Below are positions 614 to 51,484 of a stretch of 64,000 bases of DNA, piece by piece. Source of the stretch: a virus; the IMG/VR virus record IMGVR_UViG_3300043448_000837, positions 32,001 through 96,000 of that record, one strand, 5' to 3'. Numbering within the stretch: the stretch's first letter is position 1; every line of letters starts with the position of its first letter. Position numbers and translations under genes: made by a program. The notes below the pieces were generated by a model. The model had not been told where the DNA came from. It searched no databases and saw nothing but the letters and a program-made list of their open reading frames with translations.

Positions 614-3600
614 TTAGAAACCGGTGTTGTTAGTTCCCAGTCCTTGAGCGTTCAGCTCGTTCTGCATTTGACCAACGGCAACGCGGATCAGATCGATCTG
701 AATTCTTTCCAGAGTCGGGACAGGAGTCACAAACACCTTGGCGTTAATGATTCCGTTCTCGAGTGAGGCAGGAGGGTTGATTCGAGCATCACAGATAACT
801 TGGAAAGCGTCGCTTGGGCGAGCGCCGAACAGAGCACCACGAGAGTACAGCTGGTTCAGAACGCTATTACCAACCGAAATGATCTGGTTGAACGCCACAC
901 CGAATCCATCGATAACGTTGAAGATCTGGCTATCGAAGGCATTTCTCAGCGAACCGTAAACAACGTTCAGAATGACGCGAGTGTTTACGAACTGGTACAG
1001 ACGCTGTTGAGCGTCAGCAGTGTTAACGCGAGTTCTTCCGCCCCAGACAAACACCGCGCTGGTTGGGTAACCAGGCAGGGTACGGATTGCGTTGCAACCG
1101 TCAGGGTTGAGAAGGTTTTGCTGAGCCGAGTTGATCGGAATCTGAGCTGCCACTGCGTCGGCAAGTTGATACTTGACACCAGCAGGCGGGAACTGATATC
1201 CTTCAGCGCGGTAACGACGCAGAGCAATTCCGGTCACGTAAGGTGAAGGAGGAATCCACTGACCCGAAGCGTTCTCGATGTAAGGACCGTAGTAAGCAAT
1301 GAAACCGAAAGGTTGGAAGTACCTTTGGCTATCGTTGTACAGACGGTTGACATTGTCAACGCCAGCCTCAATGAACTCAGCCTGGGGAACACCATTGAAC
1401 CCAACGCCACGGATCGCATCGCTGATGATTTCGGTGGAGGTGATTGGGTCAAAGCGCCAGAGAGCACTCGGAGGAGTTGCCTCAGGGGTGAAGTTCAGAC
1501 CAACTTGTGAGCCGTAGCAAGGTTGACCAACAACACTCAAGTCGCCACCAGCAGGGATAACCACCCAGTCGTAAGCGGTTCCGTTGTAAGTCACGGCGAT
1601 CCGATCACCAACTGCAACCTCAGTTACTCCATCAGGGCCAACGGCGCCAGTAGGAGCCACAGTAACGTTGAAGTAAACCCCTACGAGTTTATCTACAACA
1701 GCTTGAATATCGGTACCGGAGTCGGTTGCTGAGAGACCGGTAGAAGTGACATACAAGGTGGCAGTGTCAAGAACACCCGCAGCAGCAGTGGTATCTGCCT
1801 CGTAGTCACCGCCTTCAATCGGGTCGATGGAAGGAACCAGGAATGCCTGTGAAGCAAAGTTCTGGTCAACGGTTGGGGTGCAGTACCAGTTCTCGAGAGT
1901 TGTGGAAGGAGAACCGGGGGCTGAAAGAGTAAGCTCAGGCAGCCAACCTGCGGTAGAATTCTCACCGAAAGGTGAAATCAAACCAACACCCAGAGCGGTC
2001 AAGCTGTTGTTGAAGAAGATCGAGACTTCAGGGTTGGTTGCGGCAGGAGCAGGAGCTGCAGTTGCAACAGCTGCTTCTGAAGCGATCAGGCCGCTATTCA
2101 GACCGTACTTCCGAGCACGAACAAACGGGATAACCGACAGTTCAGCCAAAGTGGCCGAAGTTGCCTCACCACCAAGAACCTTCGTGTAGAAGATTGTGGG
2201 GCTGGAGACAAAGGAGGTTGTTCCGCTCGGAATCGTTACGAAAGAAGAAGCCGTGTAAGAGGTTAAGCTCTCAGCCAGGCAGAAGGTGTCTGCGTCGATC
2301 ACCTGAACGTAGTAAAGCGCCTCAGAAACTTTAGTCGTTGCACGGAAGAGGTTTACTCCGGCGTTGGTCTTCACCGGCTGAGTGAAGTACAGTTTCTGAC
2401 CACTCGTCAAGCCGTGAGCGACACAAGTAACCCGAGCCGTGCCAGTATAAGCTCCTGTAGAACCAGCCACGGAAGTGTCGGGGTTCAGGATTGTACGAGA
2501 TACGAAGTTCAGACGGTAGTTAGCGGTAGCATCCTGAAGGCTAGCAGGAAGGTGCAGTGTGTTGACATACTGAGCGGCCCCAGTAATGTTCTGCAGAAGG
2601 TTTGAAGTCTGACCGTTAATTGTCTGAGGCAGGCTGTAGAAAGGAACAACGTATGTGAAGTCGCAGGTTCCAGTGGCTCCGCCAAAGTTGATCGCATTGG
2701 CAGGGGTCGTCAGGTTGATTGAACCACCAGCAGCAATGACTTCATCCAGAACGGACACAGCGTTAGGTGCGTCGTAGGCGAAGAACACGTTGTTAAACGA
2801 GTAATCACCGGTTGCCCCCAGATCATACGGGGGAGCAATTACAAAGATCGTTCCATCTTCCCCAATCGTGCTCAGAATGTCACCAGTGGCGTTACTGAAG
2901 GTAACTTCCTGAATCTGATAAGACACAGGCCAGTAGTTCTGAGTTGACAGAACGAGCATTGTGTCGTCAACGGTTGAATCAACCTCGAATGTGGCTGAAT
3001 CCAGCAGGCCAACTTTCTCACCAGCGGCCACAGGAGTTGCACTCCGAGACTGAGAGATAGCGGTTTCTGCCGTGGGGGAAGCAATCAGAGCTTGGTAGGT
3101 GAGCTTGTCGTAAGTGACATCGGTGCCAACCCATTCGTACATGGCATTGTCTACCAGGTACTTGTTTCCGGTGACCAGGTCAGCAGCAGGCTCGTGAGGT
3201 GTGTAGGCGCTGTACTTGTTGATGTCGGTCACAAGGAAAGGACCGGGATCAGCAAGAGCCATCCACTTGTAGTTGTTGTTGGCGCAATGATCGGCAGCAG
3301 CAGCTCCGACAGCAGCACGGCCATCAGCATCAAACTGAGCGTACGCAGTTGGAGTGATCAGATAGCCTTGGTCTTGCTGACCGTCGAAAGCGGTCGCGAT
3401 GCACTGAATGTAATCCTGGGGAACTCGCTCCAGGTTCTGCTGTTGGCCAACGATGTTCTGAATGTCATAAACATTCTGCATCATGACGTACTGAGCACCG
3501 ACTGGCAGAACCAGCGGAACAACGCTCACGTTAGCGTCAAACGTAGCGGCAGCAATGCTTACGAAAGCATTCTCAGAGTTTGAGAGAGGATTGATCGAAG

Positions 3601-10156: not shown

Positions 10157-10962
10157 TAGTTTACGGAGTTGAAGGAGAACATTTTGAGCTCAAAGTTGCG
10201 AACACCGGAGCTTTCGTAAACGATATCTTTGTTCTTCTTGTAAATCTCGTAAGCGTCGAACACCGAAGAGAAGTGAAGCGGGCGGTCAGCGGGGCTGCTT
10301 CGCCAAAGGAGCATTTCCTGGAGGGACAGTGGAACGTCGATATCCCACTGCTCGTCTCGCGAAGAGTACAGGAGGGGAAGGGCGTCATTCCGCCACCAGT
10401 CGCAGATCTGGGGGCTGTATTCATCCCAGGCCAGAGGATCCGTAAGGTGAGTGTCGCAAGTTTCGCGAATCCAGTTCACGTACTGGCGACCACGCTCAAC
10501 AACAAGTTTGGCACTCGCCGGAACTTCTTCCAGGAAGTAAGCTTCCTCGTCACCACGAACGACCCGCTCAATAACCGAGGGGAACAAGAAGGACTCGGAA
10601 ATAAGGCGGAAGTCCTCAGCACCTTCGCTAACCAAACGCAGAACAACCTCAAGGATCGACATAGTGGTTGCAATCTGAAGCTCTTCACCCGAAGCATTAA
10701 CTTTTGGTTTCTCGTTCGACAAACCTTTTCGCAGGAGGCTCAACTCGCGCTCAAGGCGACGAACCTCTCGACCCATTTCTCTCTCGAGTTTGTTCTTGTA
10801 AATCTCCGACTGGGTTACCAGATTGTCGAATTTGTTGTCGAGTTTCTCCAGCTCGACGTCCAGCTGCTCCACGGATATCTTCAAGTTGGATAATTTTTTC
10901 TTGAGAGAAGTTACCGAAGAGCGTATTGAGTTGGTTGCAAAAATTAGGTTGTCAGCAGTCAT
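10156..10962 (-). CDS. Hypothetical protein with N-terminal coiled coil
   Basis: Heptad-rich N-terminus; coupled genes. Confidence 0.7.
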   Translation of the reverse strand: MTADNLIFATNSIRSSVTSLKKKLSNLKISVEQLDVELEKLDNKFDNLVTQSEIYKNKLEREMGREVRRLERELSLLRKGLSNEKPKVNASGEELQIATTMSILEVVLRLVSEGAEDFRLISESFLFPSVIERVVRGDEEAYFLEEVPASAKLVVERGRQYVNWIRETCDTHLTDPLAWDEYSPQICDWWRNDALPLLYSSRDEQWDIDVPLSLQEMLLWRSSPADRPLHFSSVFDAYEIYKKNKDIVYESSGVRNFELKMFSFNSVN

Positions 10963-47934: not shown

Positions 47935-49431
47935 TCAGAAGGTGAACTTCGTTTGAATTACGCCACCAAAGTTAGACGAAGCGCCGGTGAACGCTTGGTT
48001 GTTGGTTACGTAGAAGACAGCGGGAGTGATCGAGATGTTGTCGCTCACACGGTACTTGTAGAAGGCTTCCCACATCAGAGCATCCTTGGAAAGACTTGCG
48101 GCATTTCCAGGTTGGCCGATAGCGAAACCAGCACCGTTGCCTTTCGCGAAGACGTCACTCCACTGAAGGCCAGCGTACCACGATTCAGCGTTGGTTGCAC
48201 CTGCAGGAGTGGTCTTGTTTTGAGCGGTCAGGCTCACAGTGTTCCAGCCGTAGCCAGCGCTCACAGAGGGCACGATTCCAGACTTGGAAGGTTGCCAGTA
48301 GGCGCTGATTGCGTAGCCGTTGGAAGTTTGACCGGGAGCAAGAACGCCAGAACCACCGTTCAGAGCGTTAAAAGTGCGAACCCGAGTTCCTTCCGTACCG
48401 TAGCGGTAACCGAACGCAACACCGTAATTAGAAGCACGGTAGCCAACTTGAGCCATCGTGTTCAGGGCGCCGGATTCGTTGAACTCACCCTTGGTGGAAT
48501 CGTTTCCATTCTGGGCAACGTAGTTCAGACCAGCCACGAAACCTTTCTTGCCGGGCTGCCTCCACTGGGCGCCGAAACCTGCACCGGTTGCCTTGTTGTA
48601 AACACCAGGCGCACCAGCAAGCTGGAAGAAGTCAAGGATTTCCGACTTGTACGCGGAAGGAATCCAGGCCATCTCCGTGTTACGAACCAGGGGGCCAGCG
48701 GTCAGGGTTAGACCCTTCGTGAAGGCGGGGAACTGGTAGTACAGGCGATCCAGTTTGACAGTGTCGGCGGTGCTTTCAGCCTTGTCCAGCTTGAACAGCG
48801 AGGAGCTTGATCCGAAAGGTTGAGCCGAGAAGTTACCGGAACGCAGGCGAGTGCGCAGCAGATCTTTGCCGGTGAACGACGTGTCGAAGTTCAGGCGAAG
48901 GTCGTAGTTGAAGGCGGTTTCCCCAACGTTCGTGCTGGGAGCGTTTTTGCCAACACCGGGAGTCTTGGCGCCATCAACTCCACCCAGAATGAAATTTGCT
49001 TCACCGCGAAGTTTGGTGGTGGTTGAGAACTGAGTTGCTTCCAGTTGACCAACCTTGGCTTCCAGCTTACTCACGCGACCGCGAATCACGGCCAGTTCAG
49101 CGGCGAACTCACGGGCAAGACGATTGAGTTCGTCCGTGACTTCAGTTACGCGATCCAGGCAGGCATTCAGCAGGGCGGCAGCTTCGTAACGGGTCATCGC
49201 TTGACCGCCACCGTAAGTTCCGTCCGGGTAACCTGCAACGCAACCGTAGTTTTCTACGAGTTTTTGCAGAGCACCGTACGCCCAGTCGGTAGGCTTGACG
49301 TCTGAGAATTGAGCAATGCTCGTCACTTGCTCGGAAGAGTATTGATTGACTGCGGCGATATTAAGATCAGCTGCAGATGCTACCAGCGGCGTCGTAACAA
49401 CAGCACCGGCAACAATAAAAGATTTGATCAT
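47935..49431 (-). CDS. Cyanobacterial SomA/SomB-type porin (SLH + OprB-like)
   Basis: Signal peptide; FSDVKPTDWAY..YGCVAGYPDG..TRYEAAA; QFSTTTKL; C-terminal FTF. Confidence 0.93.
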   Translation of the reverse strand: MIKSFIVAGAVVTTPLVASAADLNIAAVNQYSSEQVTSIAQFSDVKPTDWAYGALQKLVENYGCVAGYPDGTYGGGQAMTRYEAAALLNACLDRVTEVTDELNRLAREFAAELAVIRGRVSKLEAKVGQLEATQFSTTTKLRGEANFILGGVDGAKTPGVGKNAPSTNVGETAFNYDLRLNFDTSFTGKDLLRTRLRSGNFSAQPFGSSSSLFKLDKAESTADTVKLDRLYYQFPAFTKGLTLTAGPLVRNTEMAWIPSAYKSEILDFFQLAGAPGVYNKATGAGFGAQWRQPGKKGFVAGLNYVAQNGNDSTKGEFNESGALNTMAQVGYRASNYGVAFGYRYGTEGTRVRTFNALNGGSGVLAPGQTSNGYAISAYWQPSKSGIVPSVSAGYGWNTVSLTAQNKTTPAGATNAESWYAGLQWSDVFAKGNGAGFAIGQPGNAASLSKDALMWEAFYKYRVSDNISITPAVFYVTNNQAFTGASSNFGGVIQTKFTF

Positions 49432-49486: not shown

Positions 49487-49558
49487 AGCGGAATACCGGG
49501 ATCGAACCGGTGACATCTTGCTTGGAAGGCGAGCGTTCTACCGCTGAACTAATTCCGC
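49487..49558 (-). tRNA. tRNA-Gly(TCC)
   Basis: Loop CTTCCAA. Confidence 0.9.
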
Positions 49559-49938
49559 GAATTTCTGTAAGTTCGAGTGGACTTACCTTTGTTTAAATTC
49601 CTAAAGTTAGGTGTGAGCGAATGGCAGTTTGGACACAGCAACTCAAGGTTGGACGGGTTGTTGTTTGTAGCGTCCCCATCGATGTGATTGATTTCTAGGG
49701 GAACGTTTCTGGTGACAGGGTGAACTTCACCCCACCCGCACCTTGGGCAACGGTTGTTGGCCTGCTCAAGTAAGAACCTCCGAATGTGATTTGATTGCTT
49801 AACCTGTGAGCCCAGGGTTATCTCACCGGATAACCACTTACGGATGGCCTCTTGATACTGATAATCTATCTGACAGCGGTTGCTGCAGTATTTGTTAGTT
49901 TTTCGGCGGCAGGTTGCCCCGCAAGTTAAGCAAGTCAT
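49549..49938 (-). CDS. HNH endonuclease between two tRNA genes
   Basis: Start MTCLTCG; LEINHIDG..NN..NLELLCPNCH. Confidence 0.88.
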   Translation of the reverse strand: MTCLTCGATCRRKTNKYCSNRCQIDYQYQEAIRKWLSGEITLGSQVKQSNHIRRFLLEQANNRCPRCGWGEVHPVTRNVPLEINHIDGDATNNNPSNLELLCPNCHSLTPNFRNLNKGKSTRTYRNSRN

Positions 49939-49947
49939 AATTGAAGG

Positions 49948-50019
49948 AGCCCCCGACATGATTTGAACACGCGACATCCTCATTACAAGTGAGGCGCTCT
50001 ACCACTGAGCTACAAGGGC
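49948..50019 (-). tRNA. tRNA-Thr(TGT)
   Basis: Loop CTTGTAA. Confidence 0.9.
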
Positions 50020-50071: not shown

Positions 50072-50440
50072 TTAGGCTCGCGAGTAACACACGTTAATGT
50101 GGCCACGGCCAGGATTTGCCAGCGCCTGGAAAGCAGCGTAGGAGAGATCAAGGTCTCGCCCAGCCACGAATGGGCCACGATCGTTGATTCGCACGACGAC
50201 CGAACGGCCCCCGTGAGTTACTCGAAGTCGGGTTCCGAACGGAAGATTACGGTGTGCCGCTGTCAAGGCATAGGTGTTAAACCGTTCTCCGCTCGCTGTA
50301 GTTTGACCGTGATAACCGTCACCTACTCCATAATAGCTGGCGCCAGAGCATGACGAAGCTAGAGAAGGCGATGGAGCCAGGAAAGTCATTCCGGCAACGG
50401 CGGCCAAACCAAACAAACCCTTCAGTTTCGAAACAAGCAT
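50072..50440 (-). CDS. rlpA: RlpA-like (DPBB) lytic transglycosylase
   Basis: [31 protein letters not shown]. Confidence 0.9.
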
Positions 50441-50612
50441 TTAATTAGATAGAAATCAACATCCACCTCGCAAAGTGTGGGTCCGTGTTTCAACGGCACT
50501 TGTGGGTGGCTCTAGGAGTTTAAGGAATGACTGCATTCCCGAGTTGCTCCCCGCAGTGTATCGTGGGGCCGACCTCATAAATCGGTGTTAAAAGCAACGC
50601 CGCTATTATAAC

Positions 50613-50640
50613 GGAAAAAAGGGAGGCGTAAACCTCCCCG
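50613..50640 (-). terminator. Intrinsic terminator after tmRNA
   Basis: GGGAGG-TTTACG-CCTCCC-TTTTTT. Confidence 0.85.
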
Positions 50641-50825
50641 TTCGCTCAGAGTGTGTTGCTCAAACGGCAACAGCAGTCCTGCGGAATGAAACGATGTTGT
50701 TGAGATTTATTCTCACTTCACCCTGCACGGTCGATAACCAGTTTACCCCCGTGAAGTGGAGGTAAGGCGATTCGAACGCCTGTGTCGCACAGAGCGCCCC
50801 AGTTTATAGTCTTGTGAGAGGACTG
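50641..50825 (-). ncRNA. ssrA: Circularly permuted (two-piece) tmRNA
   Basis: T-arm and 3' acceptor strand precede GGGGGTA 5' strand; G3-U70 pair; tag (A)LNNIVSFRRTAVAV* at 50660-50704; outer ends approximate. Confidence 0.88.
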
Positions 50826-50828
50826 ATT

Positions 50829-51329
50829 TCAGCGTAATTTTCTACCTTTACGGTAATTTTCTGGGATAGGGTCACCTACCCTTATCTTCAAGTTTTTCTC
50901 CCCATTGGTAACCCACATAGTGCCGAATTGAGAATTTCTCTCCCCTTGTTGGTGTTTCATTTCAGCAAGAGTTTTTCGTCTCTTAGCTTTAGCCTCAGGA
51001 GATAGGGCAGCTTTTACGGCTAGAAGTCTATTCTTGCGTAGATTATTTAGCTGGTTCGATCTGTATTCTTCGTCGTTTTTCCACAGGAACGAAGTTCTCT
51101 CCCACATCTTCTCTAAGCCGCCGCTATTTCGAGCAAGTTGGTTAATAATTTCTTCTTTTCCAATTTCTCCTACCAATCCCTTCCACGCAATAAAATCACG
51201 TTTGTCTCCCCATAGTTGCCAGTTGCAGTAATGAAACATTGCATGTTGAGTTACCGAGACCTCGACTAGGTTTGAAAGATCATCGGTTCCCCCTTTATAC
51301 TTCGGCAGAATGTGATGTTTGTGGGTCAT
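50829..51329 (-). CDS. HNH homing endonuclease
   Basis: HKHHILPKYKGG..NLV..HAMFH; NSQFGTMWVTNG. Confidence 0.85.
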   Translation of the reverse strand: MTHKHHILPKYKGGTDDLSNLVEVSVTQHAMFHYCNWQLWGDKRDFIAWKGLVGEIGKEEIINQLARNSGGLEKMWERTSFLWKNDEEYRSNQLNNLRKNRLLAVKAALSPEAKAKRRKTLAEMKHQQGERNSQFGTMWVTNGEKNLKIRVGDPIPENYRKGRKLR

Positions 51330-51412: not shown

Positions 51413-51484
51413 TTGGCGATACTGGACTTGAACCAGTGACTTCTTCCGTGTCAAGGAAGTACTCTACCTCTGAGTTAATCGCCC
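51413..51484 (-). tRNA. tRNA-Val(GAC)
   Basis: Loop TTGACAC. Confidence 0.88.

Follow-up and report, generated by a model that had tools for sequence, protein, structure and literature searches.

A reduced, circularly permuted tmRNA gene of picocyanobacterial type at the end of a phage tRNA operon

A circularly permuted tmRNA gene was read on the minus strand at positions 50614-50825 of the window, the 64,000-nt stretch of viral DNA analysed here. The parent form is the two-piece tmRNA of picocyanobacteria (RF01851 cyano_tmRNA), and the element is a genuine and probably functional tmRNA. We consider it likely, from sequence comparison, that a phage lineage captured a picocyanobacterial gene, pared it down and uses it with the host machinery as a working two-piece tmRNA. 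The comparisons below establish homology to the cyanobacterial two-piece form, an intact tRNA-like domain that covaries and keeps G3·U70 and the discriminator A, conservation of the joining helix P2, constraint on the tag frame at the level of the peptide, a stop codon carried in an H5-like helix and a terminator-closed position at the end of a tRNA operon. The first-pass annotation had proposed a miniaturised permuted phage tmRNA; Rfam matches, covariation and comparison with hosts bear out that the gene is phage-encoded, circularly permuted and reduced from the picocyanobacterial type, and each element listed there was found on the minus strand at the place given. The small size, the lack of room for pseudoknots, the leucine resume codon and the AV tag end singled out at that stage are all real. 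The interval proposed, 50641-50825, holds those elements and stops short of the end of the gene at about 50614, which leaves the terminator outside.

In 5' to 3' order the gene comprises the P2 5' strand, the T-arm, the acceptor-stem 3' strand with the discriminator A, a 6-nt linker, the acceptor-stem 5' strand with G3·U70, a D-loop analogue, the P2 3' strand, the tag frame LNNIVSFRRTAVAV with its stop codon and a terminator. Within one transcription unit, the acceptor 5' strand thus follows the T-arm and the acceptor 3' strand, and the tmRNA measures roughly 190-200 nt. A 5' leader (50808-50825) carries a small hairpin of AGUC (50821-50824) with GACU (50808-50811), which probably forms the 5' end region of the acceptor piece and which we infer to belong to the mature RNA. 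Hosts have an analogous hairpin at the leader position (GUCCGG...CCGGAC in the RF01851 alignment), and a hairpin there may cap the 5' end of the acceptor piece. Most relatives have a conserved hairpin UUGYCC-N4-GGRGCAA between the upstream tRNA and P2 (L041:10620-10650, with equivalents in L018 and L002-L004), from which the window leader hairpin (AGUC...GACU, 50808-50824) differs.

P2 pairs CGCUCUGUGCG (DNA CGCTCTGTGCG; 50786-50796) with CGUGCAGGGUG (DNA CGTGCAGGGTG; 50719-50729) over 11 bp, comprising seven Watson-Crick and four G·U pairs. The junction ACAC connects its 5' strand with the T-arm (AGGCG, loop UUCGAAU, CGCCU; 50765-50781), which fits the Rfam tmRNA T-arm consensus. The 7-bp acceptor stem is formed by UACCUCC, followed by the discriminator A (50757-50764), and GGGGGUA (50744-50750), with G3 (50748) opposite U70 (50760) as the alanine identity pair. 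Between the two strands is the linker CUUCAC (DNA CTTCAC; 50751-50756), and linkers across the mini-tmRNA relatives are 5-6 nt of variable sequence. CCA is absent from the gene, the 3' end after the discriminator not being encoded, and UCCA was invariant in 18 of 18 sequences. The D-loop analogue AACUGGUUAUCGAC (DNA AACTGGTTATCGAC; 50730-50743) aligns to the Rfam consensus aCUGGUU.UCGAC, with UCGAC invariant in the homologue alignment; this region contacts SmpB in known tmRNAs.

A 14-nt spacer AAGUGAGAAUAAAU (50705-50718) ending in AAUAAAU precedes the tag, and within it GAGAAYAAAU is conserved in relatives. The spacer carries U(-5)A(-4) and a GAGA able to pair with UCUC over the resume codon. 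The tag frame (50660-50704) opens at the resume codon CUC (Leu; 50702-50704) and runs CTC AAC AAC ATC GTT TCA TTC CGC AGG ACT GCT GTT GCC GTT TGA, giving 14 amino acids that end in AVAV. An imperfect H5-like helix (50643-50683; 92.7% paired) covers the 3' half of the tag and includes the stop codon, placed in or near the apical loop. The gene closes with the hairpin GGGGAGG-UUUACG-CCUCCC (50620-50639) followed by U6 (50614-50639 in all), an intrinsic terminator or 3' stabilising hairpin, and a hairpin at this position is kept in all relatives. A promoter-like site TTTACG-16-TATAAT (10 of 12 matches; 50605-50632, minus strand) overlaps the terminator and is a possible restart for downstream genes.

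Neither of the pseudoknots PK1 (before the tag) and PK2 (after the tag) was seen in the window tmRNA, and there is no space for them since only 14 nt separate P2 from the resume codon and 20 nt the stop codon from the terminator. At most a 4-bp GAGA/UCUC hairpin is left before the tag, which is weak and absent in L059 and L005. A complementarity of UCUCAC in the leader with GUGAGA before the tag was specific to the window and was dropped, not being conserved in relatives.

The window belongs to an IMG/VR viral contig of 114 kb and about 51% completeness, from a lake cyanophage, that encodes a tail sheath, a T4-type DNA polymerase, topoisomerase II and an RnlA-like ligase. Its porin gene (47935-49431, minus strand) is 75% identical to the porin of S-SRM01, a freshwater Synechococcus jumbo phage of the Kyanoviridae. 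By porin identity S-SRM01 is the closest relative in culture, and since no copy was found in it, the element is dispensable. The tmRNA is the last RNA gene in the window's stretch of the tRNA operon, and the interval back to the upstream tRNAs showed no σ70-like promoter. An HNH-like (homing endonuclease) ORF (50829-51329, minus strand) separates it from tRNA-Val(GAC) (51413-51484); in the near-identical relatives L002-L004 the tRNA-Val directly abuts the tmRNA leader, and the ORF looks like a recent mobile insertion within the operon. A second HNH ORF lies at 49549-49983, and an RlpA-like DPBB lytic transglycosylase is encoded at 50072-50440 (minus strand); in the cyanophage S-CRM01 an RlpA-like gene likewise adjoins the tmRNA. 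The phage encodes a tRNA-Leu(GAG), the reader of CUC, as called by ARAGORN. SmpB (PF01668) was not found in the 114 kb contig or in five related ones, each of which is partial, and a CCA-adding enzyme (PF01743) was not found in the partial 114 kb contig.

ARAGORN reported 32 tRNAs on the minus strand and called no tmRNA, and Rfam at gathering score returned tRNAs only, with no tmRNA in the window region. The permuted tRNA-like domain was matched under permissive Infernal settings by beta_tmRNA (positions 76-169; 33.3 bits, E=1.5e-8), and RF04321 tmRNA_permuted scored 32.2 bits (E=1.3e-4 locally, E=3.9e-6 over the 114 kb contig). The element is below the gathering scores of both RF04321 (47 bits) and RF01851 (70 bits). 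The ARAGORN and Infernal check suggested in the first-pass annotation had a divided outcome, with no ARAGORN call and sub-gathering Rfam scores on one side and permissive matches to two tmRNA models on the other. As the matching Rfam models are independent of the family model built here, the tRNA-like resemblance is not a chance one.

Pattern scans of IMG/VR gave about 30 contigs with the compact element, representing 26 or more distinct sequences. Many of these elements sit directly between two tRNA genes, and in L041 the tmRNA gene fills the whole 196-nt gap between tRNAs at 10548-10619 and 10816-10889. A tag-core pattern with 14 specified bases produced mostly chance matches, from which three real marine phage copies emerged. 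A scan of metagenome assemblies for the CCA-tailed junction (...CTCCA-CCA) was too generic and matched the 3' ends of ordinary tmRNA genes, none of the 80 junction loci fitting the family model. Among GenBank phages, blastn gave no match for the 1.1 kb region, the L059 element or the L072 element, and the L041-type query alone reached S-CRM01 and S-CAM3.

A covariance model of the mini tmRNA was built from nine diverse members. Full-length scores were 126-211 bits for the mini-form copies, 103 for L072, 83 for S-CRM01 and 63 for S-CAM3, while ordinary alpha- and beta-type phage tmRNAs matched in the tRNA-like domain only (33-50 bits). Covariation was assessed in 24 sequences aligned by fitting to the model, which favours the structure; 92.8% of the proposed-pair cells were base-paired, as against 42-49% with partners slid by 1-3 columns, double-sided changes occurred at 26 of 35 pairs, and 0 of 500 shuffles reached any observed measure. 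The T-arm was 100% paired with covariation at 5/5 pairs, and P2 had double-sided changes at 10 of its 11 pairs. The acceptor stem was also 100% paired, with four covarying pairs (pairs 4-7) next to G1-C, G2-C and G3·U, which were invariant in 24/24 sequences. Its variants in relatives were GGGGGUA/UACCUCC, GGGGAUG/CAUCUCC, GGGGAUA/UAUCUCC, GGGGUAU/AUACUCC, GGGCCAU/AUGGUCC and GGGGCAU/AUGCUCC, G3·U70 being kept in every one found.

Unguided RNAalifold recovered P2, the T-arm, part of the acceptor stem and the terminator, together with a small hairpin over the resume codon and a helix around the stop codon, and single-sequence minimum free energy (MFE) folds of L005, L059 and L062 recovered the three-way core. 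Both results agree with the structure from the model-fitted alignment. The MFE fold of the window sequence contained neither the T-arm nor P2, a lineage-specific competing hairpin being preferred by 4 kcal/mol; the comparative evidence overrides this fold, the gap being only 4 kcal/mol.

The tag LNNIVSFRRTAVAV is found in the window and most copies, with the variants ANNIVSFRRTAVAV in L005 (which has a GCG resume codon), LNNIRKFERIAVAV in L018, LNNIVKFERTSVAV in L008, LNNIVSFTRQTVLV in L059 and LNNIVRFERVAVAA in L072. Changes across relatives were largely synonymous or conservative. All three sites that differ between the window and the L041-type tag are synonymous (3/3), Arg9 is kept through AGG, AGA and CGC, and the terminal Val through GUU, GUA and GUC; the stop codon is UGA or UAG. 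Since synonymous and conservative changes dominate, the tag behaves as a translated type of sequence, and the aligned copies place it under peptide-level constraint, or purifying selection. Tag ends other than VAA were frequent in phage-borne cyanobacterial-type tmRNAs (VAV, VLV, ALV and AAL; L059:3878-4065, L436:1730-1926, L075), and the VAA end was kept in the host-like phage copies S-CAM3, L422, L425 and L072.

The resume codon followed a different pattern. CUC stood at the resume position in 32/32 family loci, with no synonymous variant, in a search made within the conserved context; apparent GTC, GCA, GGC and TTG resume codons proved to be the starts of ordinary genes, reading GGAGAATAA-ATG. 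Because no synonymous variant occurs and L059 keeps CUC without a GAGA partner, this conservation looks like a constraint at the RNA level, and CUC invariance would not by itself prove decoding as leucine. The GAGA/UCUC hairpin as a full explanation of CUC was ruled out by the same L059 copy.

Two-piece tmRNAs of picocyanobacteria are established (Gaudin et al. 2002, as cited in PMC3968760), and those of Vulcanococcus, Cyanobium, Synechococcus and Prochlorococcus scored 296-313 bits over all 288 RF01851 positions. Their tags have the form ANNIV[RSA]FSRQ.APVAA, with GCG or GCU (Ala) as resume codon. Hosts and window have in common the permuted order, the 5' hairpin, P2, the T-arm, a 7-bp acceptor stem with G3·U70, the discriminator A, a CCA that is not encoded, U(-5)A(-4) before the resume codon, the NNIV.F tag core, a helix-borne stop codon and a 3' terminal hairpin. 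The 6-nt linker is neither unusual nor a phage peculiarity, since linkers in hosts span 5 to about 60 nt, with Vulcanococcus L177 and Prochlorococcus L191 having ones of 5-6 nt.

Other parts of the gene differ from the host form. P2 has about 17 bp in hosts and 11 bp in the window. The distance from UCGAC to the resume codon is 52 nt in hosts, including a 5-bp hairpin (PK1 region), and 25 nt in the window, so the host pre-tag hairpin or PK1 region is gone. After the stop codon, hosts have about 60 structured nt (a pseudoknot) before the terminal hairpin whereas the window has 20 nt. CUC (Leu) occupies the position of the host GCG/GCU (Ala) after the same U(-5)A(-4), the context being UAACA or UAACU before GCG in hosts and UAAAU before CUC in the mini form, and the host tag of 16 amino acids ending in PVAA is replaced by one of 14 ending in AVAV. 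The family model gave 36-64 bits on host tmRNA genes against 126-211 for family members, and the mini/CUC form was not found in the 151 picocyanobacterial genomes sampled (family model <=64 bits).

One picocyanobacterial genome, G041, has a second compact permuted tmRNA (L252:~1540-1740, minus strand; C1 ~926.9 kb). Its linker is 5 nt and its pre-tag spacer 25 nt long, the resume codon is GCC and the tag reads ANNIKRTERTLAIAA. An HNH gene adjoins this copy, a tyrosine integrase is found at a distance of about 1 kb and the normal tmRNA is 1 Mb away; the copy probably belongs to an integrated mobile element with its own mini tmRNA.

Rfam scores were graded from the host to the mini form, falling from the host values through S-CAM3 (127 bits, RF01851), S-CRM01 (74 bits, RF01851) and L072 and L008 (52-61 bits) to the window (32 bits). 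L072 and L008 just pass RF04321, and L041, L059, L018, L005 and the window gave no match at gathering score; the marine contigs L422 and L425 resemble the host form, and a third, L436, is intermediate. Like the window element, the tmRNAs of S-CRM01 and S-CAM3 are phage-borne, of cyanobacterial descent and located beside tRNA genes, with linkers of 5-6 nt (6 nt in S-CRM01). Unlike it, they pass Rfam gathering scores and were ARAGORN-called in a published survey (PMC9004378). Their pre-tag region is about 42-43 nt with a hairpin (43 nt in S-CRM01; 25 nt in the window), they resume at GCA (Ala) where the window has CUC, and their tags, ANNVVKFRRTAVTSLVAAL in S-CRM01 and ANTSDSAANNIVAFSRSTVAA in S-CAM3, are longer than that of the window. 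The two are intermediate forms between the host and the mini tmRNA.

Phage-encoded two-piece tmRNAs, including those of S-CAM3 and S-CRM01, are already published. In the survey of Buchholz et al. (2022), 402 phage genomes out of 18,146 had tmRNA genes, with 133 unique tmRNAs of which 53 were two-piece, 50 of the 53 from marine or aquatic phages; their tree has a cyanobacterial lineage to which cyanophages also belong, and their Table S1 lists permuted tmRNAs of the cyanomyophages S-CRM01, S-CAM3, S-CAM1 and S-SSM7 (PMC9004378). The novelty of a phage-encoded permuted tmRNA that the first-pass annotation implied does not hold in view of these 53 isolate-phage examples (PMC9004378). A 2025 tmRNA database holds 79 phage sequences, and the RF04321 model spans the tRNA-like domain only (PMC11915505). 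What is distinctive in the window form is the missing room for PK1 and PK2, the CUC resume codon and the VAV tag end. Phage tmRNAs are known, and to our knowledge none has a tested function.

Two-piece forms typically have PK1 ahead of the tag and PK2 behind it (PMC3985003). Two-piece tmRNAs go on tagging with fewer pseudoknots, a small hairpin can substitute for PK1, and the stop codon is carried by H5 (PMC3968760); PK1 and PK2 are thus typical without being strictly defining, PK1 being replaceable by a hairpin. The U(-5)A(-4) context fits the known frame-setting rule (PMC3985003, PMC3968760). Resume codons are mostly Ala and sometimes Gly (PMC3968760), and other codons exist and are tolerated, as with GUA (Val) in H. 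pylori and GUA or GUC at that position in E. coli (PMC2862035). A limited literature search turned up neither a resume codon that is Leu or otherwise non-G-initial nor a pseudoknot-free phage tmRNA that encodes a tag. The mitochondrial (jakobid-type) tmRNA RF02544 is, like the window element, permuted, very small and pseudoknot-free (PMC3985003, PMC11915505); it has no tag reading frame, whereas the window keeps a conserved tag, and permissive Infernal listed no RF02544 match for the window region. The tmRNA-like RNA of mycobacteriophage DS6A, reduced to the tRNA-like domain (TLD), is likewise a phage-encoded tmRNA derivative (PMC11915505), in standard order, without a CDS and acting as an inhibitor, in contrast to the permuted order and full tag frame of the window.

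If the element works as a two-piece tmRNA, it would be transcribed together with the tRNA array. RNase P would cut 5' of G1, at the 3' side of the linker, and free a coding piece of about 137 nt beginning GGGGGUAAACUGG; the acceptor piece would be trimmed from the 5' side of the linker to the discriminator and would then receive CCA from a host enzyme, so as to end in ...UACCUCCACCA. The two pieces would be held together by the acceptor stem and P2, charged with alanine by host AlaRS and delivered by host SmpB and EF-Tu to stalled ribosomes in the infected cell. Translation would resume at CUC, appending A-LNNIVSFRRTAVAV, and the ribosome would be released at UGA. It may be speculated that the VAV end and the Leu start alter host protease handling of the tagged products. 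The first-pass suggestion of a ribosome-rescue back-up, or of a tag with altered protease targeting, is plausible. Several observations weigh against a functional reading, namely the missing ARAGORN call, the sub-gathering Rfam score, the absence of PK1 with a weak 4-bp hairpin in its place, the Leu resume codon, undocumented in the literature found, the competing MFE fold of the window, the absence from S-SRM01, and the SmpB and CCA-adding enzyme genes not found. In E. coli tmRNA, PK1 is required unless a hairpin takes its place (PMC3968760).

A bolder version of the functional reading is possible, if doubtful. A freshwater cyanophage lineage would have the smallest natural tag-encoding tmRNA (about 190 nt, two pieces, pseudoknot-free), resuming at CUC and ending in VAV instead of the host Clp degron; it would rescue ribosomes during infection, for example after mRNA damage by host or defence nucleases, without product degradation, and outcompete the host tmRNA for SmpB. 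The altered tag end offers a direct test of whether phage trans-translation serves rescue without proteolysis.

It is rather unlikely that the element acts instead as a decoy or competitor, a matured and perhaps charged RNA that diverts SmpB, AlaRS or EF-Tu from the host tmRNA, so that host trans-translation is blocked or the degradation tag is exchanged for a poorly recognised one that spares rescued products. The DS6A RNA does inhibit endogenous tmRNA when expressed in E. coli (PMC11915505), phage-borne tags often deviate from the host VAA (to VAV, VLV, AAL or ALV), other candidate decoy RNAs lie in the tRNA operon, and relatives have abiF RNA. Yet a pure decoy needs no synonymously kept tag frame, no H5-like stop helix and no frame-setting context, and the version with a non-degradable tag is a sub-case of a functional tmRNA and no true rival to it. 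Matches above gathering score to abiF RNA (RF03085) and wcaG RNA (RF01761) were seen in the same tRNA regions of mini-tmRNA relatives (L018:748-784, L008:409-445 and L008:3777-3887).

Decay offers a very improbable account, in which a captured host tmRNA gene lost its pseudoknots and Ala resume codon and has no function. The scores below detection thresholds, the lost structural modules, the absence from S-SRM01 and the degenerate T-loop of L066 would suit such a relic. They are set against conservation over diverged phage lineages, compensatory changes in three core helices with G3·U70 invariant, purifying selection on the tag and a compact gene that fits precisely between tRNA genes. Least credible of all is a piece of host ssrA left by integration or imprecise excision as an attP-like sequence with no RNA gene, for although tmRNA genes are frequent integration sites (PMC9004378) and a compact copy lies beside an integrase in G041, the window holds a complete permuted gene and no 3' fragment, strongly diverged from host tmRNA (36-64 vs 126-211 bits with the family model) and located in the tRNA operon of a T4-like, lytic-type myovirus.

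On the preferred reading of a working, host-assisted tmRNA, the family would represent a natural minimal form, stripped to the tRNA-like domain, P2, a short spacer that sets the frame, the tag and an H5-like helix. If functional, it would show in nature both of the things suggested by E. coli mutagenesis, namely that the pseudoknots can be dispensed with and that the upstream context determines the choice of resume codon, with no need for Ala or Gly.

Most family members fall into a detection blind spot, being missed by ARAGORN and by Rfam gathering thresholds; a local ARAGORN run made a permuted-tmRNA call for just 3 of 26 copies, with a spurious tag each time. Surveys of phage tmRNAs therefore undercount, the more so as the copies of cultured phages are mis- or unannotated. 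The S-CRM01 tmRNA (L075:1480-1683; HQ615693 88328-88531, minus strand) has no GenBank feature, and that of S-CAM3 (L076:1479-1690; NC_031906 183029-183240) is overlapped in GenBank by a 'hypothetical protein' CDS, BOW87_gp053.
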